Below are positions 3,607 to 49,268 of a stretch of DNA of 64,000 nucleotides, one piece after another. A program made the translations under genes and the position numbers. Positions within the stretch are counted from its first letter, which is position 1. Each line of letters begins with the position of its first letter. The notes beneath the pieces were generated by a model. It saw nothing but the letters and a program-made list of their open reading frames with translations. It was not told the DNA's origin and made no database searches. Source of the DNA: Candidatus Cryptoclostridium obscurum. GTDB lineage: Bacteria; Bacillota; Dehalobacteriia; UBA7702. The stretch spans positions 6,990 to 70,989 of the forward strand of contig CAJFVQ010000027.1 of NCBI GenBank assembly GCA_904420535.1, written 5' to 3'.

Positions 3607-3608
3607 TA

Positions 3609-4684: not shown

Positions 4685-5477
4685 GCGATAACCTCCAGAT
4701 CAAAAATTCTTGATATATTCCACGTAACCTCTCATCTAAACGGTCAAGGGCTTCTTTTTTTATAGCATCAGGGATTCCGTAATAAGCTTCGGCAATGCTC
4801 CCGGCAATGGCAGTAAGAGTGTCGCAATCTCCGCCCAACGAAACAGCTTTGCGGATGCAGTCTTCAAATCCATAGCTCTCCCAAAAAGCCGTCATCGCCT
4901 GAGGCACTGTCTCCTGACAACTCGCATTGTATTGATAGTCAAGACGAATTTCATCCAAAGTTTGTTGAAAGTGATAATGAAAAGTATCTTCAATATATGA
5001 TCTTACTTCATTTTTATCTTTTCCCGTCCGCAAAAGATAGATGGCGGCTGCTACCGAAGCGGCCCCTTTGATTCCTTCGGGATGATTGTGAGTGACTTTT
5101 GCCGTTAATTCCGCCACAAACAATGTTTTTTCTAACGATGGATAAAGCCATCCTACGGAAGATACCCGCATAGCGGAACCGTTGCCCCAACTGTTGTAAG
5201 GTTGCGGAGCCTTGGAATGAAGCCATTCTTGAAAGCCCTGTCCGTATCCGGCATGGGGATAAAGAGCGCCAAATTCCTGCATCCGCCGAATAAGTGAATG
5301 CTTCACTTCGCCCTCATCTGCGCCTCGACTTTCCATCAAAGCTTTGGCTACGGCTGCCGTCATCACCGTGTCATCGGTAAAAAAACAGCCTTTGCCCCAA
5401 AAAGGGAAATCCGTGGTTTTGATCGGATCAAATTCGTAGATACTGCCAACCATATCGCCGATCATGGCGCCGAGCAT
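4677..5477 (-). CDS. ADP-ribosylglycohydrolase family protein
   Basis: MLGAMIGD, FTDDTVMT, GNGSAMRVS, THNHPEG, GGDCDT; start reassigned to ATG 5477. Confidence 0.9.
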   Translation of the reverse strand: MLGAMIGDMVGSIYEFDPIKTTDFPFWGKGCFFTDDTVMTAAVAKALMESRGADEGEVKHSLIRRMQEFGALYPHAGYGQGFQEWLHSKAPQPYNSWGNGSAMRVSSVGWLYPSLEKTLFVAELTAKVTHNHPEGIKGAASVAAAIYLLRTGKDKNEVRSYIEDTFHYHFQQTLDEIRLDYQYNASCQETVPQAMTAFWESYGFEDCIRKAVSLGGDCDTLTAIAGSIAEAYYGIPDAIKKEALDRLDERLRGIYQEFLIWRLSHD

Positions 5478-5641: not shown

Positions 5642-5718
5642 TGGTCGGAGTGAAAGGATTTGAACCTTCGGCCTCTGCGTCCCGAACGCAGCGCTCTACC
5701 AAGCTGAGCCACACTCCG
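5642..5718 (-). tRNA. tRNA-Pro (anticodon CGG)
   Basis: Reverse complement CGGAGTGTGGCTCAGCTTGGTAGAGCG-CTGCG-TTCGGGA-CGCAG...GGTTCAAATCC...CTCCGACCA; cloverleaf with encoded CCA. Confidence 0.97.
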
Positions 5719-24883: not shown

Positions 24884-26341
24884 ATGAGACTATTATCCAA
24901 GATCCAGGTTTTAACCGACGACGACATGGAAAAGGTGCATGAAAGCACATTAAAACTTCTTTGGGAAAAAGGCGTCAGCTTTCAAAGCAAAGAAGCGATA
25001 TCACTGCTAAAACACCATGGCGCCACCGTCAATGGAAATAATGTAAGGTTTCCCAATGACATGGTAATGCAGGCTTTGAGTCAGTGTCCCCAAACCTTTC
25101 ATCTGGAAGCATTGAACCCTCAACGCAGTGTTACGGTGGGTGACGGATTATTGATCCACCCTGCCGGCGGCGAGGTATTTATACAAGATTTTGAGGACGG
25201 ACGAAGATCCCCCACCCTGGGGGACTTCGCCGATCTTCAAAAAATTTATCAGGCTTGCAGTGAATTGGATATTGCCGGCTACCAGCCCTTGAGTCCCATT
25301 GACGTTCCGGATCGAACCAAAGGACTCCATTGCGTTCTGGAATCTATGAAGCATTCTGACAAGCCCATTTTAAGTCCCATGGAACTCGATACCGTCGTTC
25401 AAAAAGAGGAATGCCTCAAACTGTTTGAAATTGCCTACGGAAAAGACGGTTATCTCGATAACCATTACGTTACCTGGCACGCTGTGTGCCCCAATTCTCC
25501 CCTGTTTTACTCAGATTTTGCCTGTGAAGGCATTAAAGTATATGCAGAACGAAATCAGCCCGTTTTGGTTGTCTCAGCGCCCATGACGGGAATTACATCT
25601 CCTATCTATCTTTATTCGACTGTCGTTTTGCAAATCGCAGAAATTTTGGCAGGACTCGTTCTGGCACAGCTGTATCGTCCTGGCGTACCTGTAATACCAT
25701 CGGCCTCACTGACCTACGGTAATATGCGTTACGCAAGCTGGGAATGCGCCTGTCCAGACACGGCTTTGATGCTGGTTGCCTCGGTTCAAATGTTTAAAGA
25801 TTTCTATCATCTACCCTCACGGGCGCAAACCGGCGTAACAAGTTCGAAAATCATTGATTATCAGGCCGGAATGGAATCAATCCAAAGTTTTATGTTAACG
25901 GCTTTGGCTGGCGTTTCTCTTTGCAGCCAGTCGTTGGGAACGTTGGAAAACCTTATGACGACATCACTGGAAAAAACCATTATCGACAATGAAATGATTT
26001 CCAGAGTGCGTCATATTCTTGATGGAATGAATACCAGTGAAGAAGCATTAGGAATGGATATTTTAATGGAAGCCAGACCTTGTCAGGATTTCATGACCCA
26101 TCCATCCACACTGGATCATTTGAAAGACGGTTGGCAACCCCAGGTTTCCGATTGGCGTTCTTACGATGCCTGGCAAGCCCAGGGAGCGCCTGAAATTCTC
26201 GACGCGGCCCATACTGAAGTGGAAAAAATCTTATCATCGGCACCGGAAAGCTTTTTACCTCCTGAAATGGAAGAAGCGCTTTCGGAATACATCAGACACG
26301 TTGAAGAAAAAGCGTCTGTTATATCTGCCCATAATAAATAA
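24884..26341 (+). CDS. MttB (trimethylamine methyltransferase) superfamily, non-pyrrolysine member
   Basis: VHESTLKLL..GV.F, NSPL, TGITSP, TSSKIIDYQAGMES; no in-frame TAG. Confidence 0.88.
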   Translation: MRLLSKIQVLTDDDMEKVHESTLKLLWEKGVSFQSKEAISLLKHHGATVNGNNVRFPNDMVMQALSQCPQTFHLEALNPQRSVTVGDGLLIHPAGGEVFIQDFEDGRRSPTLGDFADLQKIYQACSELDIAGYQPLSPIDVPDRTKGLHCVLESMKHSDKPILSPMELDTVVQKEECLKLFEIAYGKDGYLDNHYVTWHAVCPNSPLFYSDFACEGIKVYAERNQPVLVVSAPMTGITSPIYLYSTVVLQIAEILAGLVLAQLYRPGVPVIPSASLTYGNMRYASWECACPDTALMLVASVQMFKDFYHLPSRAQTGVTSSKIIDYQAGMESIQSFMLTALAGVSLCSQSLGTLENLMTTSLEKTIIDNEMISRVRHILDGMNTSEEALGMDILMEARPCQDFMTHPSTLDHLKDGWQPQVSDWRSYDAWQAQGAPEILDAAHTEVEKILSSAPESFLPPEMEEALSEYIRHVEEKASVISAHNK

Positions 26342-26351
26342 GTCCCTATAT

Positions 26352-26394
26352 AAAGAAAAGGCTCCTGTTGTCCCAAACAGGAGTCTTTTCTTTC
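26352..26394. terminator. Bidirectional intrinsic terminator
   Basis: AAAGAAAAGGCTCCTGTT...AACAGGAGTCTTTTCTTT. Confidence 0.8.
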
Positions 26395-26454
26395 TGTCAC
26401 TTTTTAGTGATCCGAACTTAAAAGTGTAGATAAACTTGTAGAACAAAACGATCT

Positions 26455-27216
26455 CTATCTCCGTTGACGCAAAACTTCATAAATCATAACAGCAGCAGCA
26501 GCGGAAGCATTAAGAGAAGATATATGTCCTACCATGGGAATGGTTACTTTAAAATCACATTGTTCCATCAACAAACGGGGAATCCCGCGATCTTCGCCGC
26601 CAATAATCAGTAAGATGGGGCCTTTCATATCCTGATCCCACATAGGCGTACCTTCCATATCGGCACCGTAAACCCATAGCCCCTGATCCTGCAATTGTTT
26701 TGCCGTTTGTGTCAAATTTGCAACCCGCGCCACCGGGACATATTCGGCGGCGCCTGCCGCAACTTTGGCTACAGTGGCATTTAACCCCACGCTGTTATTT
26801 TTGGGAATGATGATACCGTGAACACCGGCGATATCCGCTGTCCGCATAATGGCTCCCAAATTTTGAGGGCTTTCAATTTCCGCCAACATGAGCAGAAAAG
26901 GGTCTTCCCCTCGTTCTTTGGCCGCGTCAATCATCTCGTCAACTTCGGAGTACTCATAACCGGAGATCTCCGCGATTACCCCTTGGTGCTTTCCTGCGAA
27001 CATTTCATCCAATTTGCGGCGGGAAACAGTCGCGATGGGAATCTGAAATTCCTTAGCCTTGGCGACGATCTGGCGGGCAGATCCTTCCAATTTTCCTTCG
27101 GCAAAATAAAGTTTCAGGATGGGACGTCCGGCCTTTATTGCCTCCAACACACCGTTACGTCCTGGGATATAGCGGGTCCCCTCCCCTTTGGTTTCAGATT
27201 TTTTCCCCGACTTCAT
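26455..27216 (-). CDS. rlmB: 23S rRNA (guanosine-2251-2'-O)-methyltransferase
   Basis: GRNGVLEA, HQGV, PQNLGAIMR, SLNASAA. Confidence 0.94.
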   Translation of the reverse strand: MKSGKKSETKGEGTRYIPGRNGVLEAIKAGRPILKLYFAEGKLEGSARQIVAKAKEFQIPIATVSRRKLDEMFAGKHQGVIAEISGYEYSEVDEMIDAAKERGEDPFLLMLAEIESPQNLGAIMRTADIAGVHGIIIPKNNSVGLNATVAKVAAGAAEYVPVARVANLTQTAKQLQDQGLWVYGADMEGTPMWDQDMKGPILLIIGGEDRGIPRLLMEQCDFKVTIPMVGHISSLNASAAAAVMIYEVLRQRR

Positions 27217-27899
27217 GCTCGACTCCTTACGTCTTTACATCGTCCGCAACTGTATTGATCTTCAAAACAAATTCCCAGTGTTCGACAAGTGGGGCCAGCT
27301 TTTTTAAAAAGAACGGGAGCCACGTCGCGAACGAGAGAAAGCATTTTTTCCGCCAAATCGCGAATTTCCCACTGGGCTCGTTGACAGCATCGCAGTTCAA
27401 AGAAGTGCAATAGACTTCTGGCATTCATCGTCACGACCAGGTTGGTCACATTGGCATTGGGTAAAATATAGCGCGCATCTTCTGCCGGGACTTCGGCCGC
27501 CAAGGCGTCGTAGACATCCATAATATCGGCACAAGCCTGTTCAAACTTAGCCTTCAACTCTGGGCGCTCCGCAATGGTAGGCGGGATCACGAATTGGGCA
27601 TTGGCGCCTTTTTCTTTCACATAGCGCTGACTTTTCTGAGAGTAAGAAGCACCGATGCGATGGCGAACCAGTTGGTGCGATAATGCACGGCTAACGCCAT
27701 CAATGGCAAAGGTAAAAGCAATATGTTCCAAAGGCGACTGATGCCCCATGGACATTAATTTTTTCACAAGGCTTTCCGCCTCTCCTTCTTTAAAGTTCTC
27801 CATGATTTCATCTCCGCCCAAGGGAGAATAGCATACTCTTGCCGCTGCAGCGACCAAAGCATCGGGATTCGGCGTGTGAGCCAAAAGTTTCACTTGCAT
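27213..27899 (-). CDS. thyX: FAD-dependent thymidylate synthase
   Basis: GHQSPLEH, SHQLVRHR, SQKSQRY, RAQWEIR. Confidence 0.96.
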   Translation of the reverse strand: MQVKLLAHTPNPDALVAAAARVCYSPLGGDEIMENFKEGEAESLVKKLMSMGHQSPLEHIAFTFAIDGVSRALSHQLVRHRIGASYSQKSQRYVKEKGANAQFVIPPTIAERPELKAKFEQACADIMDVYDALAAEVPAEDARYILPNANVTNLVVTMNARSLLHFFELRCCQRAQWEIRDLAEKMLSLVRDVAPVLFKKAGPTCRTLGICFEDQYSCGRCKDVRSRA

Positions 27900-28312
27900 G
27901 ATTGATTCCTCTCTTCTCTTTCTATCAATGCGAACAAACGGGCAAATACTTCATTTAACCGTTCGGTTCTTCCTGCCAAATACAAAGCACCAACCAAGGC
28001 TTCCACCGCGGTGGATTTGCGATAATCCTGCACGTCGGCATGTTTGGGTTGATGACCTGATTTACTGTTTCTTCCCCGTTTTAGCACCGCTTCTTCCTCT
28101 TCTGAAAGATAAGGAAGAAGTTCATGGTAAAAACGGCTTTGGAACGTGGCCTTTACATATTCTACGGCTTTATGGTGGAGTTCTTCCGGCTTTCGAATTC
28201 CCTGTTTCAATAAATAGCAGCGAATCGCCATTTCATAAACGCCGTCGCCAATATAAGCTAAAGTCAAAGAAGGAAAATTGATGGTGTCGATCCATGAATA
28301 GATGGGATTCAT
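27890..28312 (-). CDS. mrnC: Mini-ribonuclease III
   Basis: LAYIGDGVYE, RGRN, YRKSTAVEALVG; between cysS and rlmB. Confidence 0.92.
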   Translation of the reverse strand: MNPIYSWIDTINFPSLTLAYIGDGVYEMAIRCYLLKQGIRKPEELHHKAVEYVKATFQSRFYHELLPYLSEEEEAVLKRGRNSKSGHQPKHADVQDYRKSTAVEALVGALYLAGRTERLNEVFARLFALIEREERNQSCK

Positions 28313-29757
28313 ATACCGCTCTCCTTCTTCCAACGCGGGCCATCAGGGGTATCCTCAATGACGATCCCGATCTTTTTCAATTCATCACGGATAAAATCTG
28401 CCGTAGTCCAATCTTTTTGGCTGCGGGCACGGCTGCGGATTTCCATCAAGAGGTTCAGTAAATCGTTGCTCATGTCATCGGCCCCTTCCTCTTCTTGTGG
28501 GATAATGACATTCATGACGCCGTTTATTTCGCAAAAAAATGCCAGAACTCCTTTGATTGCAGCCACAGTCTTTTCGCCTCCAACAAAGCCGCTAACGTTG
28601 ATAATGCCGTTTACGTCACGGCACAAATCAAACATACAGGCCAAAGCCAGGGAGGTATTAAAATCATCGTCCATGGCAGCAATAAATTTCTCCCTCGTTT
28701 CCGCCACAAGACGATCCAGCTGTTCCGGAGCGTCGCTGTCTTCTCCGGGATTTTTTCCCAACAATACCGCCTTTTCCTCGGCAATACGGTAAGTGTTCCA
28801 GATGCGATGGAGAGACTTTTCCGCTGCAATCAGTTTTTGATCATCAAAGTCAAGGGGACTTCTGTAATGGGTCGACATCAAATAAAAACGAACCACAGGG
28901 CCGGGGAATTTATCAAGAATGTCCCGGAGAAGGAAAAAGTTCCCCAAAGATTTGGACATTTTTTCCGAATTGATGGTGATAAAACCGTTGTGAATCCAAT
29001 AATGGACCGATTCACAACCGTTACAGCCTTCACTTTGGGCGATCTCATTTTCGTGATGGGGAAAAATCAAATCCGCACCGCCACCGTGGATATCAAAGGT
29101 TTTGCCAAGATATTTTGTAGACATGGCAGAACATTCAATATGCCAACCGGGGCGGCCCTTCCCCCAGGGACTATCCCAAGCAGGTTCTCCGGGTTTTGCG
29201 GCTTTCCATAAGGCGAAGTCCAAAGGATCCCGTTTCTGCTCGCCCACAGCAATTCTGGCTCCCGCCTGCATCTCATCAAGAGAACGACCGGAAAGCTTGC
29301 CGTAAGGGGCAAATTTTCGCACTTCGAAATAGACATCCCCATTGACTTCATAAGCGAGACCGTTATCCATAATGGTCTGTACCATGTCAATGATGTCCTG
29401 CATGTGCTCGGTGACACGGGGATGGACGTCGGCCCGTTTGACACCCAGTCGATCAGCATCCTCGAAGTAAGCTTCAATATATTTCTCCGCCAACTTTTTG
29501 GGGTCCATATTTTCTTCATTGGCGCGGTTGATGATTTTGTCATCCACATCGGTAAAATTTTGCACATAAGTAACATCATAACCGCGATAAGCAAAATAGC
29601 GACGGATCACGTCGAAGGCCACGATAGGACGGGCATTGCCCAGATGGATGTAATTATAAGTCGTGGGACCACAGACGTACATTTTGACTTTGCCTTCTTC
29701 CACCGGAACAAATTCCTCTTTGGCATTATGCAGGGTGTTATAAATTTTAATTGGCAT
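28309..29757 (-). CDS. cysS: Cysteine--tRNA ligase
   Basis: [25 protein letters not shown]. Confidence 0.98.
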
Positions 29758-30394
29758 ACTCTTTCTCCTTTATGATGTTTTCCAGCAGCTCGACCTTTTC
29801 GGACAACTCATTCAGCTTTTCAAAAACAGGGTCATCGCAGCGGCCGTCTTCCACTTCTTCCCCTTCGTTCACACGGCAACCGTCTTTGACTACGATACGG
29901 CCGGGCACCCCAACAACGGTGCAATTGTCGGGGACATCGGCCAAAACTACGGAACCCGCTCCGATTTTTACGTTATTGCCAATGGTAATGGAGCCGAGCA
30001 CAATGGCGTTGGAACTCACGACTACATTATGGCCGATGGTGGGATGACGCTTCCCCTGTTCCTTTCCGGTCCCCCCCAAAACCACACCTTTGTAGAGGGT
30101 GACGTTTTTACCAATTTCCGTCGTTTCCCCAATAACGATGCCCATACCGTGATCAATGAAGAAGCCTTCGGAAATCTTGGCACCGGGATGGATCTCTACC
30201 CCGGTAAAGAAACGATTCCAATGGGCGATCCAACGGGCAATCACCGTCCGACCGTGACGAAAGAACCAATGGGCCAAACGATGGCCCCAAATGGCATGAA
30301 GGCCGGGAGAACAGAGAAAGACCTCCCAGGCCGAAGTTGCGGCGGGATCGCGATCCATGACAGCTTTAATATCTCTTTTTGCACGGTCAAACAT
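29747..30394 (-). CDS. cysE: Serine O-acetyltransferase
   Basis: DPAA, EIHPGA, IDHGMG, KRHPT; start at MFDRAK after GGAGG. Confidence 0.95.
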
Positions 30395-30429
30395 CTTTCT
30401 TCCTCCTGTCTCAGCTGATTCGGAACCCT

Positions 30430-30680
30430 GACAAAATAAAAAACCGCCCCGTTCCAGAGACAGGGGTCGGCTGTGGTTCCACTCTGATTTACGGCAAAGC
30501 CGCATCTCGAATCCTTTAACGCAGGTGATACGTCGGCGCCTAAAGGTGAATGAAACCATTCAGCGCCACAGCTCCCAAGTGCACTTCAGAAAAGTCATTG
30601 CCAAAACCGCTTTCAGCCGACGACGGTCTCTCTCTGGGGCGCTTTCTTTCCCTACTTTCTTGTTCAAAGCCTTTTCTTGA
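30430..30680 (-). promoter_or_regulatory. T-box riboswitch (Cys) leader of cysE-cysS
   Basis: AGAGA and GCTGAA stem I motifs, GAAG-TGC specifier (Cys codon), T-box AGAGTGGAACCAC, terminator with T-tract; TTGACA-17-TAAATT promoter upstream. Confidence 0.9.
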
Positions 30681-30823
30681 TTTGTACTTTAATTTACCAA
30701 ATAACCAGACCATTGTCAAGATATTTCCAATTAGAAAATATAGACGAAATCAAAAGCCGATGGTATAATAATGTTATGATTGAAACAAGGAAAAAATCAT
30801 CAAAGTATTTGGGAGGTATGGCC

Positions 30824-31690
30824 ATGATAATGAAATTAAAACGCAAACTATTGCTCCTTACCATGATCTTGACTTGTCTCTGCTTTTTGGCCACAGGCTG
30901 CAATCAAGAAGAGAAAGATACGGCCGCCCCTACGGAAACAAAAGTGGAAGAACCGATTAACGAGGACACCGCCGACGCCGATATCACCAAAGAGGAAGCT
31001 CAGGCCTTTTTTGAAGAGATCACAGACAGTGTTTACTATCACTTGTTGGAAATACCCGTTGATGACCTTCAAACAGGGATCCAGCCTTATTATTGGATCT
31101 GGATCGCCGCACCGGAGCAGGAAGCGGTTTTGGACGATTTCACGGAACCTTACATCACTCAGGAAGAGATCAATACATACCGCAGCGACGGCGGCCAGCT
31201 GTCCTACGCGGCATATTCCAAAAGCGATGTCCAGGAAGGCCTGGATCACATTTGGGGAACGGAAACCGTCACCTGGGAAGAAGCTGTGGGACAGCAAGAA
31301 CCCCCCATGATTATTGAAACCGATAAATATCTGCTGGTAGCGCAGGGATTCGGCGGGCCTTATGATATGCAGTTTTATCAAATCAAAGATGTCACTTGTG
31401 ACGGCACAGCAGCAGTCGTCCATGTTTATGCCTTAGAGTGGGACGTAGACAATACAGTTGTAGATCTCTCCGACAGAGCCGTTTCCAGAACTACTGAGGA
31501 ATCCGGTGCCCGTATGACATATTATGATTACGGCATCTTGGGGACATTGGCATACCAAGAAGGTGCCACAGTGGAAAGCCTTTTAAATAATTTGGGCGTT
31601 TCCCTCGATTCCCTCGGCACCGTTGATTTCCATCTGGAAAAAGACGAAAATGGTGATGTTTACCTCACAGAAATCCAATGCAGTCACTGA
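30824..31690 (+). CDS. Hypothetical acidic lipoprotein
   Basis: LATGC lipobox, GGAGG RBS, TAGACG-17-TATAAT promoter upstream. Confidence 0.75.
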   Translation: MIMKLKRKLLLLTMILTCLCFLATGCNQEEKDTAAPTETKVEEPINEDTADADITKEEAQAFFEEITDSVYYHLLEIPVDDLQTGIQPYYWIWIAAPEQEAVLDDFTEPYITQEEINTYRSDGGQLSYAAYSKSDVQEGLDHIWGTETVTWEEAVGQQEPPMIIETDKYLLVAQGFGGPYDMQFYQIKDVTCDGTAAVVHVYALEWDVDNTVVDLSDRAVSRTTEESGARMTYYDYGILGTLAYQEGATVESLLNNLGVSLDSLGTVDFHLEKDENGDVYLTEIQCSH

Positions 31691-31701
31691 GTATTCCAAC
31701 C

Positions 31702-31740
31702 AACCGCTATTTTCATTTGATAAAATAGCGGTTTTTGTTT
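31702..31740 (+). terminator. Intrinsic terminator
   Basis: AACCGCTATTTT...AAAATAGCGGTT-TTTG. Confidence 0.8.
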
Positions 31741-31970
31741 AAAAATCGTTTCATTAACCGCATGATATAGTAATTTCTGTCATCAAGGAGCAAATGAAAT
31801 GTCTTGAACAAAATACGCCACCTCCAAAAAGGATTGCCTTATGATTAACAATCGCACTTATATATTATATAATTGATCTAATAGTAAGATTAATTTATAA
31901 ATCATCAAGCAGTTCGGCAATGATAATCAAAGGAGTTATACACCGTAAAAATAAAAAGGAGGATGGAAAT

Positions 31971-32680
31971 ATGAAAAAGTACGTCGTATACTTCTTGCAA
32001 TCGTATTTTGTCTCATATTTACAGTTGGGGTATGGGCAAAGAATGAAGTAGCAACGAATACCAAAAAGACGAAATCACAGATTTGGACACTTAATATGAA
32101 ATGGCAAAAACTAATCAGTTTACATCAACCAAGGTTATGGCCAATGCAGGCCATTAACATAACATCAAAGTAGAAAAATGCACGACATGAACAAGTCATA
32201 ATAACACTCAATCTCTTTTTTCCACAAACGAAGCGAACGCACTGGAAGAAATTTCTTCTTACGAAGTAACGCATCATTTAGAAACAAGGCAAAAAGTAGA
32301 CGGAACGATTGAGGAAAGATATATAACCATGGTGATTTCCAAATTGACGCCTACGGATTTAAGGTGAAACGACAGTCAATCATCCCATTCCTCAAAGCGG
32401 TGCAGAAAGCAGGCAGGGCTATGATAGTTCATATTCGGTAAGAAGCCATGTAAGAATGGACTATCTTTATGTTTACACTTCAACATTCCATTATTTCCAA
32501 ATAGAAAAAGCACAAGGTTGTTGGAGGATTTTGGACGCAAACGTAACAACTCCCCTTCGCAGACTTTTTGTAACTACAGAAGATGCATTACAGAACGGCC
32601 AGCTTAAAACCCAAAGATTGGGGCCTTATTTTCCGTCACCGATGACAACGGGATATTCCTGCAACAAAATTTGGTGAATA
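31971..32680 (+). pseudogene. Decayed secreted-protein gene
   Basis: AAGGAGG RBS; a one-base frameshift restores signal peptide MKKVRRILLAIVFCLIFTVGVWA; downstream frame has several stops; 3' boundary approximate. Confidence 0.55.
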
Positions 32681-32832
32681 CAACGATCAAAGTGAATTCC
32701 GAAATGATCCATGCAGGAAGATGCGCTACGATCACTGACGTAAAAAAGGATCAAACCAATGGTCCTTTACCGTTACAGTAGAGTAGGTATGGGAAATTAC
32801 CGGGAGTTATAAATTAAGAGGGGGATGAAATT

Positions 32833-33432
32833 GTGACACGAAAAATTCAAACGATTCTCATCGTCATTGTGGTATCTCTATTCTGCATTGGCTGTAACCA
32901 GGACACCGGCATAAACCATAAAAATTTGGAGCCTTACGAAGCGTTAATCGGCGCGACCGACGCAGAAGTGGTGGAAACTTTGGGAGAAGGAACGCCGGTG
33001 GACGCTCCTGATTCAGAGAACCAGCCGGATACTGCCATCATGTGGCAGAGAGAATACCAGGGCTGTTTATTTGCAGAAGGCACCAAAGAAGATCAGGGAA
33101 AAACTGTCGTCCAATATTTTATGCCCGATTGGGATGTCATTATGGCCGATGAAGTCCAAAATGATCCCCGTGAAGTTTCCTGCGTTATTATGACGGCGAC
33201 GCTTCCCCAAGAAGACAGTGTGGCGCTTTATGAATCAGTGGCAAGTCTGCTGGGGGAACCTTATTCTGAAGAAAGCTCATTTAAAGAGACAGAGCAATAC
33301 AGCGGATATTGGCAAAAAGGAGAATTGGATTACCTGTTTTGGTATGACCCGCCCCAAAATGACGGCGAGGTTTGCGGCGTTATGTTGGTAATTCAAAGTC
33401 GGGAATACAGCAGAACCTCCACAGCGGAATAA
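32833..33432 (+). CDS. Hypothetical lipoprotein
   Basis: FCIGC lipobox, GAGGGGG RBS. Confidence 0.72.
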   Translation: MTRKIQTILIVIVVSLFCIGCNQDTGINHKNLEPYEALIGATDAEVVETLGEGTPVDAPDSENQPDTAIMWQREYQGCLFAEGTKEDQGKTVVQYFMPDWDVIMADEVQNDPREVSCVIMTATLPQEDSVALYESVASLLGEPYSEESSFKETEQYSGYWQKGELDYLFWYDPPQNDGEVCGVMLVIQSREYSRTSTAE

Positions 33433-33509
33433 CGGCCTCCCTCCTTCCACTGATCGCTCGGGAACAACGGGGGGAAACGGCAGGAACCGTTCGGCGCGAC
33501 TATACCGTG

Positions 33510-33540
33510 AAAACGGCAGTCCCCAAAGGGCTGCCGTTTT
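33510..33540. terminator. Bidirectional intrinsic terminator
   Basis: AAAACGGCAGTCC-CCAAA-GGGCTGCCGTTTT. Confidence 0.8.
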
Positions 33541-33579
33541 ATGTATCTCTTTTGCTATTTTTGCATATATAATAGGGCA

Positions 33580-34190
33580 TCGCATTTTTCCTCCGTACCA
33601 TGATTATTAAGGTAAGGATGCGCAAAGGCTTCTCACACCAATGGCGGCGAAGAGTCAGAGCATGTTCCGGTTCCCGATTTTGGGAGTATCATTGGTCGTG
33701 TGCTCGTAGACGCTGCGGGCTGGGGTTCGCTTCCTCCACAGGGAATTCCTCGACCATAAACTGCCAATCTAGTCCAAAGTGACTCGGAAATTTCCCTTGG
33801 CGAAGGATCCAGAGGTACCGAGGCAGACCCAATCGGTGAGGTCCCCTGTTTCATCAGCGGGGTATCAAACAGTTCCGAAGCGCCCTCCTGCCTCATCGTC
33901 AGGAAATGTTGGAAGAGGAATTCTTTCGACCCCTCCTGGCCCCGGTGGAATGGAGGTAGATCTGACGTCAACATCCTTGAAGGCTTCGTTTTTCATAACT
34001 TAAAATTTGGGAAGAGTCTGTGAAAAATATTCGCCGCCGGGAGGAATAGCGGTTTCTTCCAGTTGGATTTTGATGTTCTCCGATGTGATGATGTTAGTGG
34101 CTTCAATCCATGGATCTGTAGGCAAAAATGGCTAAGTAGGCAATGATCAACGGGCAGACTGTCCATTTCTTTTATTATTTCAGCTTCTTA
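33580..34190 (-). pseudogene. Decayed surface-protein locus (SipW/TasA-type N-terminal fragment plus sortase-anchored protein fragment)
   Basis: Frame-hopping translation: signal-like KKWTVCPLIIAYLAIFAY, EATNIITSENIKIQLEE, ADETGDLTDWVCLGT, LDWQFMVEEFPVEE, DTPKIG + hydrophobic stretch + RRKN. Confidence 0.55.
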
Positions 34191-34221
34191 AAGACTGATC
34201 TTGGTGTTCACATGTTTCATT

Positions 34222-34387
34222 GACATCCATAGGCATCCTGGCGGAACAAGGTGCCTATGGATGTCCTCATTCCCCACAAGGAGGACGGAGAATGAGGACT
34301 ATTACACAAACGATGCGGAATTATCGTTGTGTATCAAATCAATTGCGGGAAGTTGGGGAAGAATCATTTCTTCCCCAACTTCCCGCA
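34222..34387. repeat. Array of four adjacent inverted repeats (hairpins)
   Basis: 14-bp, 10-bp, 11-bp (one bulge) and perfect 20-bp stems, back to back. Confidence 0.8.
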
Positions 34388-34646
34388 GCAAGGGACCTGC
34401 CAAATCCCATTGCCACACTGTCTGCAGACAGCGTTTGAGCCGAGAGCTACTTATATTTTCATGATGTGAAGTATTCACAACACAAAAAAAACAAATGAAC
34501 TACATTCCCGCGTTCTAAGTCTCCTTTTCCACTTTTAATACTTTCAATTTATCCAAAAACCTAAGAAGAATGTGATAATCCCATTGTTTTTTGGGAAGCC
34601 TACAGATCAAACGAGACTCAACAAAAACTAGTATTTGAAGAGCAAC

Positions 34647-34673
34647 TTTCGCAGAGTTGCACACTCCATGAAA
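34647..34673 (+). repeat. Left 27-bp inverted repeat
   Basis: TTTCGCAGAGTTGCACACTCCATGAAA. Confidence 0.92.
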
Positions 34674-34740
34674 CTATTTGAAAAATACCTGTTCAAAACG
34701 ATTTTTCTCGCAGACACTATCCCAAATGACGGCTTGTCCG

Positions 34741-35883
34741 TTAAAACCCGATCTGAGACAATTTATCCATATTGTTCCGTTTCAGTTCCATAGAAGGATG
34801 CACATAGCGATCCAGTGTAACTTTTACAGTGGAATGCCCCAATATTTCACTGAGAGATTTCATCTCAAATCCCACTTCCACACAGCGAGTAGCAAAGGTA
34901 TGACGCAGCGTATGAAAATGAACATCAGCAATACCACACTCCTTTGCGTATTTGGCAAATCGATATTGCAACGTCCTCGGCTCCATATACCGTTCCGTTT
35001 CCCCTGTTAAAACAAAAGCTTGGGGAGACGGAATTTCCATTTTCTTACAAAAATCTACAATGAAATCTGTCAGAGGAATTACCCTGGCTGACATTGCGCT
35101 TTTGGGATCTCCAATCATTACCGCTGTTTTATTCTCAATCGGATTGTCGGGCAGTTGCAGTCGTTGCATGGTAAAATCAATACGAACCGTTTTTTTACGC
35201 AAAGAAATATCCTTCCAACGCAGCGCACAAATTTCACCGATCCTCAATCCTGTCAAAAGCGCGAAAAGCGTACCAAATTTGCAATGGTCTAAATCTGCCA
35301 GAAGGTACTGCACCAATTTTGCCTGTTCTTCCTCGGTAAGAATTCGTATTTCCCTTTTTTTCTCTTTCGGGTAAGATATATCAATCTCAAATAAATCATT
35401 GCCAGGCTGTTGCTTTACATACTTAAAAATAGAACGTAAGATCATTAAAATATCTTTCACTGTTTTGGGAGCAAGGCCTCCAGATGACTTTTCGGTTCCC
35501 TCCGTAAGCAACTTATGGCTGAAATCATTTACCGCTATGGCATTGAATTGTGATAAAATATAACCGCCAAATGTCGGTTTAATATGATTCTTTACAATAT
35601 TGCGGTATTTTACATAAGTGGAAGCCTTAACACGGTCGCGGTTACGTTCCAACCATTCATCACAAAAGCAGGAAAACTTTTTTTTACCATCGTACAGCGT
35701 CTCTGCCATCATTTGTTTTACTTGTACTTCCAAAAGTTTTTCTTTTGTCTCTCGATAGCTTTTTCCGTAAACATAGCCCAGATGTCGCTTTCCGGACGAT
35801 GTATATTCTTTGACATATCTTCCCTCCCAGCGATTATCTTTTCGTTTATAAATGTTTTCGCCTTTTTTTGCCAATTTATCCAC
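34741..35883 (-). CDS. Tyrosine recombinase/integrase with N-terminal arm-binding-like domain
   Basis: GENIYKRKDNRWEGRY, TGLRIGE (R), PKS (K), FHTLRHT (HxxR), LGH, RYVH (Y). Confidence 0.95.
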   Translation of the reverse strand: MDKLAKKGENIYKRKDNRWEGRYVKEYTSSGKRHLGYVYGKSYRETKEKLLEVQVKQMMAETLYDGKKKFSCFCDEWLERNRDRVKASTYVKYRNIVKNHIKPTFGGYILSQFNAIAVNDFSHKLLTEGTEKSSGGLAPKTVKDILMILRSIFKYVKQQPGNDLFEIDISYPKEKKREIRILTEEEQAKLVQYLLADLDHCKFGTLFALLTGLRIGEICALRWKDISLRKKTVRIDFTMQRLQLPDNPIENKTAVMIGDPKSAMSARVIPLTDFIVDFCKKMEIPSPQAFVLTGETERYMEPRTLQYRFAKYAKECGIADVHFHTLRHTFATRCVEVGFEMKSLSEILGHSTVKVTLDRYVHPSMELKRNNMDKLSQIGF

Positions 35884-36092
35884 CCTTTCTGTAAATTTTT
35901 CTGAAAATGATCAAGGATATTGACGGTCATTGTGACGGTTTATTTCCATGGTCATTGGTACAAAACCGCAGAAAAAATAAAAAAACCAAACAACTTGCAA
36001 AAAAATTCAAAATTCAAAGAAAAAACTATTGATTTTTACATCATTTTATGATAAAAATAGTACTGTAAAAGTTGCATTTTATTTATATTGTA

Positions 36093-36119
36093 TTTCATGG
36101 AGTGTGCAACTCTGCGAAA
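36093..36119 (-). repeat. Right 27-bp inverted repeat
   Basis: TTTCATGGAGTGTGCAACTCTGCGAAA, exact reverse complement of 34647-34673. Confidence 0.92.
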
Positions 36120-36377
36120 ATATTGCAAATTTTATATCAATGTAAATCCTATTATATTTTAATTTTTATACTTTACTAAAATTTCGAGTAATCTTTTAGT
36201 TATTTTGTTAATGTCAGAGCATACCTCTCAGTTTTTCATAAAAAATAATTTTAATAAATATTAATTCATAATTATTTTGACGTTTATTTTATCATTATAG
36301 AATATATATAATCTACTTAAAATTGTTCGATACTTTTTTGAACCGCCATAGAGATTTTTTATAGAAATATTTTGAAT

Positions 36378-36416
36378 AAAAAAAAACAGTGAACATCAAT
36401 GTTCACTGTTTTTTTT
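36378..36416. terminator. Bidirectional terminator downstream of prmC
   Basis: A-tract-CAGTGAACAT-CA-ATGTTCACTG-T-tract. Confidence 0.85.
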
Positions 36417-36543
36417 AAGACATTCCATTCTTTATTTTCTGATAATAGGCTTTTTGTTTATCTTTCTATTCCCAGAGAAGTATTATTCCGAAACTGATTT
36501 TCTGATTTTAATCCAAGATTGGGCGATTTGGACAGCTCTTCTT

Positions 36544-37356
36544 TTACCTGATTGCGTACAAAAAGCGATCTTTCCCTTGATAATCTTTGCGAATTTCTAC
36601 TTTTTGCCAATCCCCTTTTTTCATTTGCTCCAAAATGGCTGCCCCCTGGGTTTCACCAAATTCCATAAGGAACAGGCCGGCTCGCTCCAAATAATTGGAA
36701 ACTTGACCGATGATACGACGGCACACCTCTAGGCCGTCGCTGCCGGCGACCAAAGCCATAGAAGGCTCGTAAGTCAACTCGATGGGGCAATGTGCCATTT
36801 CTTCTTCGCTGAGATAAGGCGGATTGGCAGTAATTAAATGAAACATTTTTCCCTCTACCGGAGCGAAAAGATCCCCCTGTTCCCAATGGACATCAACATC
36901 CAGCAGGATTCCATTTTCTCGCGCCACGGAAAGCGCATCGGCGGAGAGATCTACCGCCGTGAAATCCCCGCGCAGATGTTTCGCCAAAACAATGGCGATG
37001 CAGCCGGACCCGGTGCATAGATCCAGAGCGCGGAGCTCCCGTCCTTTTCCCCATTGGAGGGCGGCCTCTACCAATAATTCCGTTTCCGGACGGGGAACCA
37101 ATACCCCTTCCCCCACTTTGAAGGAATATCCATAAAAATCCTGACTCCCCACAACGTATTGGAAAGGACGGCCGCGGAACAACTCCACCAGCGCTTTTTC
37201 GAAACGCGGCCGCGTCGCTTCCGCAAAGGGTTGTTCACGAATGGAATAGAAAGAAAGGCCCGTCACAGCCTCTATAAGCCAACGGGCCTCGTTGATTCCG
37301 TTTTCACGTTGTTTTAATCGGTCGGCAAGCCAAAGGTAAAACGCTCCCCAAGTCAC
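36544..37356 (-). CDS. prmC: Release factor glutamine methyltransferase
   Basis: PRPETE, DLCTGSG, NPPY. Confidence 0.95.
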
Positions 37357-38426
37357 GATTCCACGCCCTCTTTCAGTTGTTTCATTTGATCATCACTGAT
37401 AAGAGCGTCAATGATTTCATCAAGATTCCCTTCTAAAATAGAGTCAAGACGATGAAGCGTTAAACCAATACGGTGATCTGTAACACGCCCTTGAGGGAAG
37501 TTGAAGGTGCGAATACGCTCTGAGCGGTCTCCACTTCCAATCATACTCTTCCGGGCGGAAGAAATATCCCCCTGAATTTCTGCCTGCATCGCTTCATAAA
37601 TGCGAGCACGCAAAACCTTCATGGCCTTTTCCTTGTTGCGAAGCTGGCTTTTCTCATCCTGACAGGAGACGACGATGCCGGTGGGAATATGAGTCAATCG
37701 CACAGCGCTTTGGGTCGTATTGACGCATTGGCCACCGGGGCCACTAGCACAAAACACATCGGTTTTAATATCGTTGGGACCGATTTCTACTTCCACATCC
37801 TCAGCCTCCGGCATCACTGCAACGGTAGCAGCGGAAGTATGAACACGGCCGGAGGCTTCAGTATCAGGTACCCGCTGAACACGGTGAACGCCGCTTTCGT
37901 ATTTCAAACGGCTATAGGCGTTCTTTCCTTCGATCAGGCAAACCACTTCTTTCACGCCGCCAATATCTGTAAAATTGCCATTCATAATTTCCATTTTCCA
38001 GCCCTGCTTTTCTACATAGCGGCTGTACATTTTAAAAAGATCATTGGCAAACAAAGCGGCCTCTTCGCCGCCGGTTCCCGCACGAATCTCCATAATGACG
38101 TTTTTACTGTCATTGGGGTCTTTGGGCAAGAGTAGAACCTTTAGTTTTTGTTCCAAATCTTGAAGTTGCTTTTCCAATGTAGCAGCTTCAGCTCTGGCCA
38201 TTTCTACCATTTCTTCATCGTCTTCCTCATTGATCAGCTCCAAAGCACCTTCCAGTTCCTCTTGCAACGATTTATATTTTCTGTAACAAACGACCACATC
38301 CTCAAGTTCTGCATGGGCTTTCACATGTTTCTGCCACTGTGCCTGGTCATTAATGACCTCGGGATCGCCGATCAATAAGGACAATTCCTCATATTTTTTT
38401 TCCAATTGATTTAGTTTTTCAAACAT
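37353..38426 (-). CDS. prfA: Peptide chain release factor 1
   Basis: [29 protein letters not shown]. Confidence 0.97.
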
Positions 38427-39352
38427 GAATCGCTTTCTTCCTCTGTTTCGTTCTCAAAATAGGGGCGTTTTTCATCGGGATGCTCGTCAAAGTAACCGGG
38501 AATCACTGCTTTTAATGACATCAAAGCGACTTCCAACTGATCCAGACTTGGTTCGCTGGTGGTGAGCTTTTGCAGCCACAGCCCAGGAGCCATCAAAATC
38601 CGTACAATGCGGTACTGACAATGCCCTGCAGACCAACGGGTAATTTCATAGGTGATACCCGCGATAAACGGCAGACAGATCAGTTTAATGATGATACGCC
38701 CCAAAGAGCCTTCGGTTTGTCCTACGAAAGTAAAAACAATAATCATAACGATCATCACCATTAACATGAAACTGGTGCCACAACGCAAATGCAGGGTCGT
38801 ATACTTTTTTGCGGCTTCCGGCGTCAATACATCGCCATGTTCCCATGTCGCAATGGATTTATGCTCCGCACCATGATATTGAAAGACACGACGAATGTCT
38901 TCCAGACGGCGAATAGCCACGATATACAAAACAAAACCGGCAATGCGCAAAATTCCCTCGATGAAACTGCGACCAAAGTCCCCTACCGTCTGATGGGCCC
39001 AAGTGCCGATGAATACCGGTAGTGCGATGAATAACCCGACGACGATCACCACAGCCAGGGCAATGGATAGAAACATCCCCCAAAAACCCAGCTGTTCATC
39101 TTCCTCACCGGACTGATTGGCCGACCAGGTAATATTTTTCATTCCTAGAACCATCATTTCAATAAGGTTCACAAAACCACGAAGAATCGGCCATTTTAAT
39201 ATGGGAAATTTATTTTTAATGGTATCGACAGGTTCTTTCTTTGTGATAATGGAGCCATCAGGCTTCCGCACGGAAACGGCATATTCCTTGGGCCCCATCA
39301 TCATCACGCCTTCAATAACAGCCTGACCGCCGTAATAAAATGGTTTTTTCAT
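38411..39352 (-). CDS. DUF1385 family membrane protein
   Basis: [30 protein letters not shown]. Confidence 0.9.
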
Positions 39353-39441
39353 ATTGCTCCTTTATATCAATGATATCACTGCCGTAAAGCAGGTTTTGCA
39401 ATAGCAAAAAACGGAGCTCTATCGCTCCGTTCATAGCATTT

Positions 39442-39645
39442 TTATTGAAGACCGTATTTTTTCTTAAATTTATCCACACGGCCGCCTTCTTCTACTAAGA
39501 AACGTCTGCTACCAGTGTAGAAGGGATGGCATTGGGAACAAACTTCAACCCTAATATTCTTTTTGGTGGATTTTGTAGTAAATTTGTTGCCGCAAGCACA
39601 AGTAATTTCTACTTCTTCATAAGCAGGATGAATACCTTTTTTCAT
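39442..39645 (-). CDS. rpmE: 50S ribosomal protein L31 (Zn-binding type)
   Basis: [21 protein letters not shown]. Confidence 0.96.
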
Positions 39646-39733
39646 ACCTAATGTCACCTCTCTTTCGGTATGGTGGATATTTTTCATGCAGAAGACATTA
39701 TAACACAGAATTCATAGGAATGCAAATACTTTT

Positions 39734-40969
39734 TTATGATTTTTTCGGACGACTGTAATTGCCCACAGCAATGCCGTTGTTTTCCAATGTTTGAATCAAA
39801 ACATCCATACCGAGGCTGCTTTCTTTGGAAAAATCCAAAGCATCATAAAAGTAATCGCAATCGATATTCAAGTTGCGGATCTGTACCTTTTGCAAGCCTG
39901 TCCGTCGGATCAGTTCCAACAGCGCCGCGATTTCCTCCTCCCGATCGGTAAAGCCAGGAAACGCCAAAAGGTTTAAAGAAACATACACGCCATGGTCAAC
40001 ACCGTAAGCGATGGATCGTTCCACATCAGCCAAAGTATAATTACGGGGGCGGTAATATCGTTGATAATGTTCCTCTTTTGCCGAAAAAAGGCTGACACGC
40101 ATGGTGTCAAGGCCGCTGTCTACAATGGTACGGATATGATCGAAATTCCCGGCATTGGTGTTGATATTGATGGTTCCCTGTTGGGTATGATCGCGGATCA
40201 CCTGAATAGATTTGGCAATACGTTCCGCCTCCAACGACGGTTCTCCCTCGCAGCCCTGGCCGAAGCTGATGATATTATCCTTCCGCTTACCGCTGAGATG
40301 AAAAGCCCCCACCTCGGCAATCTCTCTTACCTTGGGACGAAAGTCAATGCGCCCCTGGGGAGACGGGCAGCATTCGCTTTGTTGTTCTGAAATACAGCCC
40401 ACACACTGGGCGTTACAGGCGGGCGAAACAGGCAGGCCGCCTTCCCAACGTCGATAAAAAAAGTTTTGCGCGGTAAAGCAGCCGTAATTCAGAGAACAAT
40501 GAGCCAATTGGCTGACAATGCGGTTTTTCGGAAAGATATTGCGAACCCTTCGGATGCGTCGGGGCAAATCTTCCGTATTATAGTGATCGGGATGCCAGAT
40601 ACGGTGTTCATCCGTTTGGATCGCAGCCACTTTCATAGTATCCCCATCCAATGCTACGGCCGTATACCCCAACAGCGGCAAGACATCGGGGCCATCTTCT
40701 CCTTTGACATATGCGGGCAGCAGTGTTCTGGTAAAGCCTTGGGGCAGCAGTGCCGCTACAGGCCATCCCTTTTCCCCCAAAGGAACGAAATTACCGTTCT
40801 TGTCCTTTCCCAGAGGAACGCGGCCCGGCAGGGACGCAAGGGTAGCGCCGGCGGGCATGGGAATAAAGCTGTCGGCCGAGACAAATGAATCGCCTCGACC
40901 GCCTAATGCTTCCAGATCTTCGGCGACCAATAAATCGCCGTTTTCATTGGTATAAAGTAATTTCAACAT
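39734..40969 (-). CDS. Radical SAM protein
   Basis: CNAQCVGC (CxxxCxxC), SFGQGCEGEP. Confidence 0.9.
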   Translation of the reverse strand: MLKLLYTNENGDLLVAEDLEALGGRGDSFVSADSFIPMPAGATLASLPGRVPLGKDKNGNFVPLGEKGWPVAALLPQGFTRTLLPAYVKGEDGPDVLPLLGYTAVALDGDTMKVAAIQTDEHRIWHPDHYNTEDLPRRIRRVRNIFPKNRIVSQLAHCSLNYGCFTAQNFFYRRWEGGLPVSPACNAQCVGCISEQQSECCPSPQGRIDFRPKVREIAEVGAFHLSGKRKDNIISFGQGCEGEPSLEAERIAKSIQVIRDHTQQGTININTNAGNFDHIRTIVDSGLDTMRVSLFSAKEEHYQRYYRPRNYTLADVERSIAYGVDHGVYVSLNLLAFPGFTDREEEIAALLELIRRTGLQKVQIRNLNIDCDYFYDALDFSKESSLGMDVLIQTLENNGIAVGNYSRPKKS

Positions 40970-47534: not shown

Positions 47535-49268
47535 TTACATTTCATTGGGAGCATGAACGCCCAAGATCGTTAAAACATTTTTAATGGCAATGGCCGTCGC
47601 CTTGGATAATCCCAAACGGGCATTGCGCAGTTTTTCATCATCCGTATTGACTCTGCAGTGATTATAAAAGCTGTGAAACGTGGAGGCCAGATCATGAAGA
47701 TACGTACAAAGACGGTGGGGTTCCAGGGTCTGGGCAGCCGATGCAATTTCCTCGGGTAAGTCCGCCAGTTTTTTTAACAGAGCCAGTTCTTGATTTTCTA
47801 TTAATACGCCGTAATCCACAGTTTGAAAATCGGGAAGCTGATACCCCTGGGCCTCCGCCTGCCGTAAAATACTGCAAATTCTGGCATGAGCATATTGCAC
47901 ATAAAACACAGGATTATCCGAAGACTGCGATTTTGCCAGATCTAAATCAAAGTCCATAGCACTGTCTGGATTACGCATCACGAAAAAATACCGAGCAGCG
48001 TCGTAGCCAACTTCTTCCACCAGGTCCTCTAAAGTCACATACTGTCCCGAACGTTTGGACATTCGCACCAGTTCACCGTTGCGATACAATTTTACCAATT
48101 GCATTAAAATGACGGTGAGCGATTGGGGATCATACCCGAATAGACTTACGGCACGCTTCATTCTGGCCACATGGCCGTGATGATCTGCCCCCCAAATATT
48201 GATCACACGATCGAATCCGCGGTCGAATTTATCGCGATGGTAGGCAATATCTGCGGCAAAATAAGTAGGAATGCCGTTGGCCCGAACAAGCACATCATCT
48301 TTGTCCTCTAAATTTACGTGCTCCCCATTTTTCGATGGTTTCTTCTTTCCGCTCTCTTCTCGGTGTTCTGCTTTCAGTAAAATGCTGCCATCTTCCCCCC
48401 GGTACGCATAGCCCTTTTCCAATAAATAATCGACGGCCGCCTGGACTTTTCCCGAGTCATGAAGAGATTGCTCAGAAAACCAAACATCAAAATGAACGCC
48501 GTACATGGCCATAACATTTTGAATGGCTGCCAACTTCTCTTTCAAAGCGTATTTTGACAGGGTCTCCTCCCTCTCTTACTGGGATTTACCGCGAAGCTCG
48601 TCCCCATGTTCCGCACGGTAATGTTTCACCGTTTCGATGATATCATCGCCGTGGTACCCTTCCTCCGGGAAAAGGACATCTTCCCCCATCAATTGCAAAA
48701 AACGGGCATCCAGTGATTTCCCCAATAGTCGAATTTGGTTCCCGGCATCGTTGATGTAAAATTCTTTTTCCACATCGTAACCGGCGAATTGCAGCAAATT
48801 TCCCAGGGAATCGCCGATGGCACCACCGCGAGCATTCCCCATGTGCAAAAGCCCTGTGGGATTCGCGCTAACAAATTCTACCTGTACTTTCATGCCTTTT
48901 CCCAATTCCACGGAGCCGAATTTTTCACCCATTTCATGAACGACAGCAGGTACTCTGTAAAGCCAGTCATGATTGAGAAAAAAATTGATAAAGCCGGCCC
49001 CCGCCACTTCTGTTTTGGCAATATATGAGCCGGTAATATCCAATTCGGAGAGAATTGTCTCTGCTATTTTTCTCGGTGCCATCCGGGCTTCTTTGGCCAT
49101 TGCCATGGCCAAATTGGTGGCAAAATCCCCGTGTTCTTTTTCCCGGGGAGTTTCAATGACGTAGGCAGGCAACACTTCATACGATAATGTACCTTTCTTT
49201 TTGGCCATCGCCAAAGCGGCCTCCAGCCGTTTGATCAAATCTTGTTTAATCTCTTCGATAAATCTCAT
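47535..49268 (-). CDS. argS: Arginine--tRNA ligase interrupted by one in-frame TAA at 48576-48578
   Basis: SANPTGLLHMGN, WGADHHGH, MSKRSG, YVQYAHAR; the two ORFs share a frame. Confidence 0.9.

Follow-up and report, generated by a model that had tools for sequence, protein, structure and literature searches.

What does a tyrosine recombinase gene do when it lies alone between two perfect copies of an inverted repeat? The question is raised by positions 34647-36119 of a 64,000-nt stretch of Candidatus Cryptoclostridium obscurum (contig CAJFVQ010000027.1), which is called the window below and to which all coordinates refer. A first-pass annotation of this DNA had taken the segment for a candidate self-inverting switch. 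Comparison with homologous loci makes it quite probable that the segment belongs to a large family of invertible promoter cassettes which are self-contained and occur in gut Clostridia, and that its output in this genome has decayed. No published name for such a family was found, and it is defined in this analysis.

Layout of the Cassette

The segment has three main parts:

34647..34673, no strand assigned: core recombination site on the 3′ side of the recombinase gene, a perfect 27-nt inverted repeat (TTTCGCAGAGTTGCACACTCCATGAAA) that fits the family consensus TCGCAGAGT-N5-ACTCTGCGA
34741..35883, minus strand: tyrosine recombinase gene, an open reading frame (ORF) of 380 aa from GTG at 35883, probably 377 aa from TTG at 35874
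36093..36119, no strand assigned: core recombination site on the 5′ side of the gene, the exact reverse complement of the left site

The two repeat arms are separated by 1419 nt, and the whole segment measures 1.47 kb. At up to three mismatches the window holds these two matches only, none was obtained in 100 shuffles, and in the 2.1-Mb genome the repeat is present solely as these two copies. The cassette itself is also single-copy in this genome. The left core site consists of inverted half-sites, TTTCGCAGAGT and ACTCCATGAAA, around the centre TGCAC. Because this centre is asymmetric, each site has a direction, and the two stand in inverted orientation. Tyrosine recombinases acting on inverted, directional sites produce inversion and not excision.

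The distance from core site to ORF is 210 nt at the GTG start and 67 nt at the other end. One recombinase ORF fills the interval between the repeats without a second gene, and the outer flanks (CAAC on one side, ATAT on the other) contain no target-site duplication. The perfect repeats around a single recombinase gene and the lack of both cargo and target-site duplication had been described in the first-pass annotation, and the shuffles, the flank letters and the ORF content agree with that description.

The Recombinase

The encoded protein matches the Pfam families Phage_integrase (PF00589, 3.6e-26) and Phage_int_SAM_3. In the alignment of nine family members the residues R214, K261, H324, R327, H350 and Y360 are invariant, which together with the Pfam match confirms the earlier statement that the enzyme is intact and carries the R-K-HxxR-H-Y residues. 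The true start is likely the TTG at 35874, with a protein beginning MAKKGENIYKRK, as judged from the homologue alignment and a GGTGG ribosome-binding site. From its N-terminus the protein comprises a predicted DNA-binding domain (three strands and one helix), then a SAM-like core-binding domain and last the catalytic domain.

To which known enzymes is this N-terminal domain related? Residues 4-68 were modelled as three strands and a helix with a predicted local distance difference test (pLDDT) score of 85.1. When this model was compared by VIA-align with the N-domain of Tn916 integrase (1bb8), 49 residues were aligned at a root-mean-square deviation (rmsd) of 1.8 Å with 24% identity and Z 4.5. 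This was the match with the lowest rmsd and the highest identity; AP2 domains reached Z 5.3 and lambda Int Z 3.6, and all these Z values are middling. Foldseek gave no match to the model at E ≤ 0.001 (1bb8 had rank 2, E 0.8), and the Pfam arm-binding models did not match the recombinase at E ≤ 0.1. Outside the N-terminal domain, Tn1549 Int aligns over residues 136-376 (E 6e-12) and is among the best solved relatives.

Several enzyme classes were considered and rejected. The model of the FimB/FimE-type DNA invertases (NCBIfam NF007370) scored 24 bits against a cut-off of 221. Membership in the Xer recombinases (XerC, XerD, XerA, XerS) or integron integrases was rejected likewise, with XerA_Arch the best at 101 bits against 220, XerC at 76 against 335 and integron integrase at 56 against 265. 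The Hin-type serine invertases do not apply, as Pfam shows only tyrosine-recombinase domains. The first-pass annotation had proposed an integrase-like arm-binding domain in place of a compact FimB/FimE architecture. Its second half is supported by the low FimB/FimE score. The first half is supported in part: the model lies nearest to Tn916 Int by rmsd, but the Z values and the Foldseek and Pfam searches do not single out an arm-binding domain.

A Family of Cassettes

If the repeats and the gene form one functional unit, then we can ask: Does this unit recur elsewhere? Recombinase homologues were found patchily in 14 of 61 related genomes (E ≤ 1e-30) and in 11 of 73 genomes of the class (E ≤ 1e-50), and at least 579 stretches of species-representative genomes encode a relative of the recombinase. 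The cassette copies elsewhere number one or two per genome. The first homologous loci examined, 8 of the 17 matches outside the window's own, all had inverted repeats of 21-42 nt, 1353-1723 nt apart, around the gene. The set was then made up of 89 loci, namely 80 from the listed species-representative matches, 8 from relatives and the window, of which 79 had enough flank. A repeat was called at an inverted-repeat score of at least 15 within 420 nt upstream and 320 nt downstream. Inverted repeats were present in 61/79 loci, against 7/79 in a direct-repeat control and 0/79 in shuffles; the homologue check on recurring flanking repeats suggested in the first-pass annotation thus had a positive outcome.

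The repeat arms of these elements share TCGCAGAGT-N5-ACTCTGCGA, which is the build of a putative lox/FRT-type core site. The centre varies between elements, but the sites of any one element have the same centre. Elements are 1465 nt long in the median. The hosts are Lachnospiraceae, Oscillospiraceae, Christensenellaceae-like bacteria and some enterococci.

The two sides of the cassette differ in their neighbours. In 46 of 56 loci the gene beyond the 3′-side site points away from the cassette, at a median distance of 99.5 nt. On the 5′ side the neighbour reads away in 31 loci and toward the cassette in 29. The 3′-side genes include S26 signal peptidases heading camelysin/TasA-like operons, SLH proteins, SpaA/LPXTG pilin, DUF7601/DUF11/Flg_new giants, a pilin-like N_methyl protein, the enzymes DegT and RmlD, regulators of XRE, TetR, AraC and OmpR type, HU, and ResIII-HA helicases. 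Of the loci with a peptidase-camelysin flank, seven have it on the 3′ side, three on the 5′ side and one on both. As to whether surface-protein operons recur beside the homologues, the 3′-side gene is often one for a surface fibre, a pilin, an S-layer protein, polysaccharide or a regulator, and helicase genes occupy this place too.

Some loci have a more elaborate structure. In L049, L061 and L066 (also in L042, L051, L058, L063 and L112) two to three core-site copies stand in direct tandem at intervals of 33-100 nt, at one end of the cassette or at both, which would allow alternative inversions or small deletions. In locus L034 (G057:C190) the cassette lies between two divergent, inverted-duplicate S26 peptidase-camelysin/TasA-like operons that form a 525-nt repeat at 92% (802-1326 / 2886-3410 in the coordinates of L009); one side has two core sites and the other a single one. 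This arrangement is the layout of a putative toggle between two alternative fibre operons. In L095 an inverted repeat with a 124-nt score (3602-3734 / 5034-5166) lies outside the core sites. It covers the ribosome-binding site and first codons of two divergent genes and may represent duplicated targets on both sides.

The same family could be explained in another way, as a small mobile element (IS-like, that is, insertion-sequence-like, or a 'mobile inverton') which moves as a unit, its repeats being simply its ends and any regulation of neighbours incidental. The patchy distribution given above fits this explanation, as do the many unrelated genomic contexts, which differ even between this genome and the same-family genome G005, and the lack of an evident target beside the window copy. 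The tandem core sites on one side of several loci might be insertion footprints. Nevertheless, we consider the explanation unlikely. Target-site duplications of at least 3 nt occur in 3 of 61 loci, against 1.8 expected, and are not above chance; the cassette is single here and reaches one or two copies elsewhere; and inverted sites with an asymmetric centre are known to give inversion, not excision. The conserved outward promoter described below and the 46/56 bias of the 3′ neighbour point to a regulatory role. A clean empty site was not found either: the genus relatives were too diverged for this search (prmC has 68% DNA identity), and in G003 a distance of 2.4 kb separates the anchors 26341 and 36542, which are 10.2 kb apart in the window, and the region is rearranged in other ways too. 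Given how patchily the cassette is distributed and in how many contexts it occurs, there may still be room for occasional movement of the unit.

Promoter and Accessory Motifs

Between the gene and the repeats of the window cassette we distinguish the following motifs:

36029..36057, plus strand: outward promoter-like site TTGATT-17-TAAAAA with TG extension, in the usual family position, its -10 hexamer ending 35 nt from the right core site; weak
35921..35938, minus strand: two direct CCGTCA motifs (TGACGG on the plus strand), at 35921-35926 and 35933-35938, 12 nt apart, in the recombinase-sense strand upstream of the start codon
34727..34732, minus strand: third CCGTCA motif in the same orientation, just past the stop codon and inside the left core site

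In 59 of the 61 loci with repeats, the best sigma-70-like site between the 5′-side core site and the start codon reads outward. The mean promoter score over these loci is 12.6 bits on the outward strand and 7.7 bits on the gene-ward strand. The family promoter is often TTGACA-17-TATAAT with a TG extension, and its -10 hexamer usually ends 7-50 nt from the core site. The promoter-like site of the window reaches only 3.7 bits, against the family mean of 12.6, because its -10 hexamer is TAAAAA; a generic consensus scan omits the site for the want of the final T in this hexamer. The first-pass annotation had seen here an imperfect outward motif facing AT-rich non-coding DNA, and this was correct (the DNA it faces has 20-27% G+C).

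The CCGTCA motifs recur as well. C[CA]GTCA was found in the recombinase-sense strand of the 5′ region of 50/61 loci, in 22 of them as a tandem pair 11-13 nt apart. In the 3′ region, taken as the last 40 nt of the gene through the 3′-side core site, it was present in 50/61 loci, against 1/61 in an equal-length control outside the repeat. These motifs are candidate arm-type or operator sites. The N-terminal domain of the recombinase would probably bind them inside both ends of the cassette, in the manner of integrases at their arm-type sites.

Could the recombinase be merely the leftover integrase of a degraded prophage or integrative element, its repeat being a chance occurrence or a relic? The integrase-like protein, with Tn1549 Int among its best solved relatives, and the rearrangement of the surrounding DNA in comparison with a genus relative would suit such an origin. 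The family pattern makes it very improbable: the layout of repeat, gene and repeat, the promoter and the accessory motifs recur in most of the 79 loci and in many genera. In addition, a 27-nt perfect repeat is not expected by chance, and the flanks of the window cassette are housekeeping genes, with no phage or conjugation genes among them.

Does the Segment Invert?

The most direct indication of inversion comes from related genomes. Loci L097 and L099, from two related Lachnospiraceae genomes, share a flank with a DUF4340 gene and an opposite flank with a helicase, both collinear at 70-75% identity, and the cassette (72.6%) enclosed by these flanks is inverted between its repeats. The cassette has diverged about as much as the flanks, which fits vertical descent with flipping and is a further point against its movement as a unit. 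In L094 and L068 the recombinase genes are collinear, and the flank that lies at the 3′-side site of L094 abuts the 5′-side site of L068; the change of flank falls within ~10 nt of the repeats. The same switch was detected for one flank in the pairs L102/L114, L058/L033, L058/L088 and L055/L045. Three pairs were syntenic on both flanks, one of them inverted and two not.

Several observations weigh against the reading of the segment as an invertible promoter cassette. The metagenome contigs of this species from four runs contained no inverted junction. One contig in each of the runs X3 and X6 spans the cassette in the reference orientation, and run X4 has both junctions in that orientation. The contigs of run X1 have ends at 34676 and 36122 and a start at 36093, exactly at the repeat borders, and overlap by 30 nt; these breaks fit a graph branch at the repeats, and a strain mixture or a second context would also explain them. 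An exact-repeat scan of Joint Genome Institute (JGI) metagenomes returned one contig, collinear with the reference orientation. All runs were represented by Logan contigs, which drop rare variants, so a minority orientation would be invisible in them. At the family level, 18 of the 79 loci have no repeat scoring at least 15 in the set windows, though two of these (L038, L039) have repeats further out. The loci are mutually related and the family counts are not independent. The 46/56 bias means that one state prevails in most assemblies, and it could also be read as rare flipping. Finally, the promoters, the arm-type sites and the regulation of targets are all deduced from sequence.

The proposal of a self-inverting switch is thus supported at the level of the family, where inverted core sites, an outward promoter and arm-type motifs recur and both orientations occur at syntenic sites in relatives; in the contigs of this species only the reference orientation was seen. 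Two 'skip' joints with sides of 20-24 nt, traced to high-depth contigs that belong to other organisms, were disregarded. In run X1 one record could be placed in two ways and is perhaps a unitig made up of the repeat alone.

Surroundings and Apparent Decay of This Copy

What would the promoter of the window cassette control? Two flanking regions come into question:

33433..34646, minus strand: target-side flank, ~1.2 kb without an ORF, holding a frameshifted remnant at 33996-33722 and a hairpin at 34344-34387
36120..36543, plus strand: AT-rich spacer now faced by the promoter, with 20-27% G+C, ending in a bidirectional hairpin at 36379-36416 and the 3′ end of prmC

The first-pass annotation had supposed that inversion would aim the promoter at a minus-strand surface-protein locus on the left. 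This we could not uphold. On the minus strand to the left of the cassette there is no intact gene before cysE at 30559, which is followed by cysS and has a T-box leader; the lipoprotein-like ORFs of this region are on the plus strand, and the adjacent 1.2 kb holds the frameshifted remnant only. The longest minus-strand ATG ORFs on this side have 113 and 102 aa and no Pfam match. The 113-aa one is the nearest co-directional ORF beyond the 3′-side site, 673 nt off. Beyond this site the window cassette thus lacks an intact gene reading away from it.

The target-side flank has a coding-like G+C content of 44-52%. Its remnant at 33996-33722 (minus strand), split over two frames, matches the last ORF of the L088 operon in a translated comparison (E 1e-7). 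That operon consists of an S26 signal peptidase, camelysin/TasA-like proteins and a VWA protein, and starts beside the cassette of L088 itself. The closest relatives of the window recombinase among the matches listed (52-57% identity) are linked to peptidase-camelysin operons. Against same-species metagenome contigs the flank has 27 listed single-nucleotide polymorphisms (33482-34117) and 5 listed indels (33441-34484); across the four runs the recombinase gene differs at few positions and the left flank at many. The weak promoter, the lack of an intact 3′-side gene and the remnant of an operon gene lead to the simplest reading, that of a switch which lost its target operon. This copy seems to be orphaned, its predicted regulatory output decayed.

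It can also be supposed that the segment flips without any protein gene as its output, the orientation setting the expression of the recombinase or yielding a transcript of ~300 nt, which would run to the right into the AT-rich spacer toward prmC or to the left as far as the hairpin at 34344-34387. This hairpin has a perfect 20-bp stem, and strong hairpins stand ~300 nt beyond each core site (34344-34387 and 36379-36416). No intact target ORF is present, and the recombinase and both sites have been kept intact, with few differences in the gene and many in the left flank. On the other side, the promoter is weak here, an Rfam search of 26000-40000 (E ≤ 0.1) found only the cysE T-box leader and nothing in the cassette or the ORF-free flank, and the left flank carries indels between strains, as neutral DNA does. 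We think that an output of this kind is improbable, and return to the switch that lost its target.

Proposed Mechanism

How might the cassettes work? Each would encode an integrase-type tyrosine recombinase acting on two lox-like core sites at its ends, and recombination between these inverted sites would flip the whole segment, 1.47 kb in the window. The promoter inside the 5′-side site, reading outward, would in one orientation serve the flank beyond that site. Inversion would turn it toward the other site and the gene behind it, a gene that in most family members points away from the cassette. The products of these predicted targets are often surface fibres, pilins, S-layer proteins, polysaccharide enzymes or regulators.

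In this genome the cassette appears in the common orientation of the family, its putative promoter facing away from the 3′-side flank. Decay would have affected two parts of the system: the -10 hexamer lost its last T, and the flank keeps only the frameshifted remnant of a gene of the sipW-camelysin fibre-operon type. Since the recombinase gene and the two sites have remained intact, inversion may still take place, with little or no consequence for gene regulation.

It is possible, though in our opinion doubtful, that such cassettes are portable phase-variation modules which spread among gut Clostridia and put the gene beyond the 3′-side site under stochastic ON/OFF control. On this supposition the direction of the flip could be controlled in an integrase-like way, dependent on accessory factors, through the arm-type sites inside the two ends. 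The survival of the window copy beyond its regulatory use would then hint at a partly selfish, mobile lifestyle. The portable unit on this supposition may be 1.1-1.7 kb long and comprise the recombinase, the two core sites, the arm-type sites and the outward promoter.

Comparison with Known Systems

In the H segment of Salmonella, with Hin and the sites hixL and hixR, the outward fljBA promoter drives a surface-structure operon in one orientation. As in the cassettes of the family, the recombinase gene and the outward promoter both lie inside the flipping segment. Hin stands in passages of PMC5903667 as the textbook recombinase encoded within an invertible segment. The differences are as follows. 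Hin is a serine recombinase, whereas the cassette enzyme is a tyrosine recombinase (PF00589). In the cassette the putative promoter stands at the 5′ end of the recombinase gene and reads in the divergent direction. The cassette also has lox-like core sites, candidate arm-type motifs lie inside both ends, and the family has many different putative target genes in Clostridia.

The fimS switch of E. coli with FimB/FimE and the RecV switches of Clostridioides difficile are presented, in the parts of PMC5903667, PMC6083910 and PMC5386303 used here, as promoter segments inverted by a tyrosine recombinase between short inverted repeats with phase variation of surface structures. FimB/FimE and RecV are encoded outside their 150-300-bp switches, and RecV serves several distant ones; in the cassette the whole gene would flip. 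FimB/FimE and RecV are also compact, in contrast to the cassette recombinase with its predicted extra N-terminal DNA-binding domain.

The order of an N-terminal domain of three strands plus a helix, a core-binding domain and a catalytic domain, as predicted for the cassette enzyme, is that of the Tn916/Tn1549-type integrases. For the IntTn916 subgroup (Smyshlyaev et al. 2021), passages of PMC8138268 give the arm-binding (AB) domain as three strands plus a helix. These integrases move large elements between direct-repeat ends with the help of Xis, unlike the cassette, in which inverted sites 1.4 kb apart enclose only the gene and no Xis-like ORF. An integrative element of Tn916 type was rejected as a candidate, as the window has no direct-repeat att sites with cargo and the inverted sites enclose the gene alone. 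An insertion sequence or small transposon was rejected for the lack of a target-site duplication and the single genome copy.

In the architecture of the core site, the cassette resembles Cre/loxP and FLP/FRT, where two inverted half-sites also stand around a short asymmetric spacer that sets the direction. On the 2-micron plasmid the repeats that bear FRT are inverted, and FLP lies between them. The Cre/loxP and FLP/FRT systems differ from the cassette in serving plasmid or phage maintenance, with no arm-binding domain and no promoter switching.

Among the ways in which gut bacteria vary their surface, invertible promoters are one of the main ones. Most of the known examples come from Bacteroides, E. 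coli and C. difficile, where the switch is short and does not contain the gene of the recombinase that flips it. The cassette family differs in that the whole recombinase gene would flip together with the promoter, and the window copy would add a case of a switch with decayed output. Standard inverton finders look for repeats less than ~750 bp apart. If this limit holds, cassettes of ~1.45 kb are missed by them and phase variation in gut Firmicutes is under-counted. Their compactness and the spacer differences from element to element could also make the cassettes useful as orthogonal genetic toggles.

The literature searched contained no description of a tyrosine recombinase and a promoter enclosed together in an invertible cassette; supplementary inverton tables could list such loci. 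In particular, no such cassette is described in the sections covered here of PMC11892184, PMC5903667, PMC8138268, PMC9881135 and bioRxiv 2023.03.11.532203.

Other Features of the Window

Two lipoprotein-like ORFs lie on the plus strand to the left of the cassette, at 30677-31690 and 32833-33432. They have a signal peptide and lipobox-like starts (…LATGCNQ… and …CIGCNQ…) and are probably paralogous. Neither matched Pfam or NCBIfam, and a Pfam search at E ≤ 0.1 with both of them and the stop-to-stop fragments of the left flank gave only noise.

On the right, the spacer 36120-36543 forms an island of ~420 bp at 20-27% G+C, against 45-53% for the genes of the genome, and is followed by the convergent prmC-prfA operon. 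In another genome a family member (L109, 5661-6734) is also located directly downstream of prfA, which may be a coincidence or a preferred site. The only tRNA found by the tRNA scan lies far off, at 5642-5718, so the cassette is not a tRNA-linked island.

Farther away, arginyl-tRNA synthetase is present as two minus-strand ORFs 30 nt apart, 47535-48545 and 48576-49268, comprising an N-terminal piece of 230 aa and a C-terminal piece of 336 aa with a TTG start. The gene may be split, or it may be interrupted by a frameshift or stop; an assembly error could also account for the arrangement.

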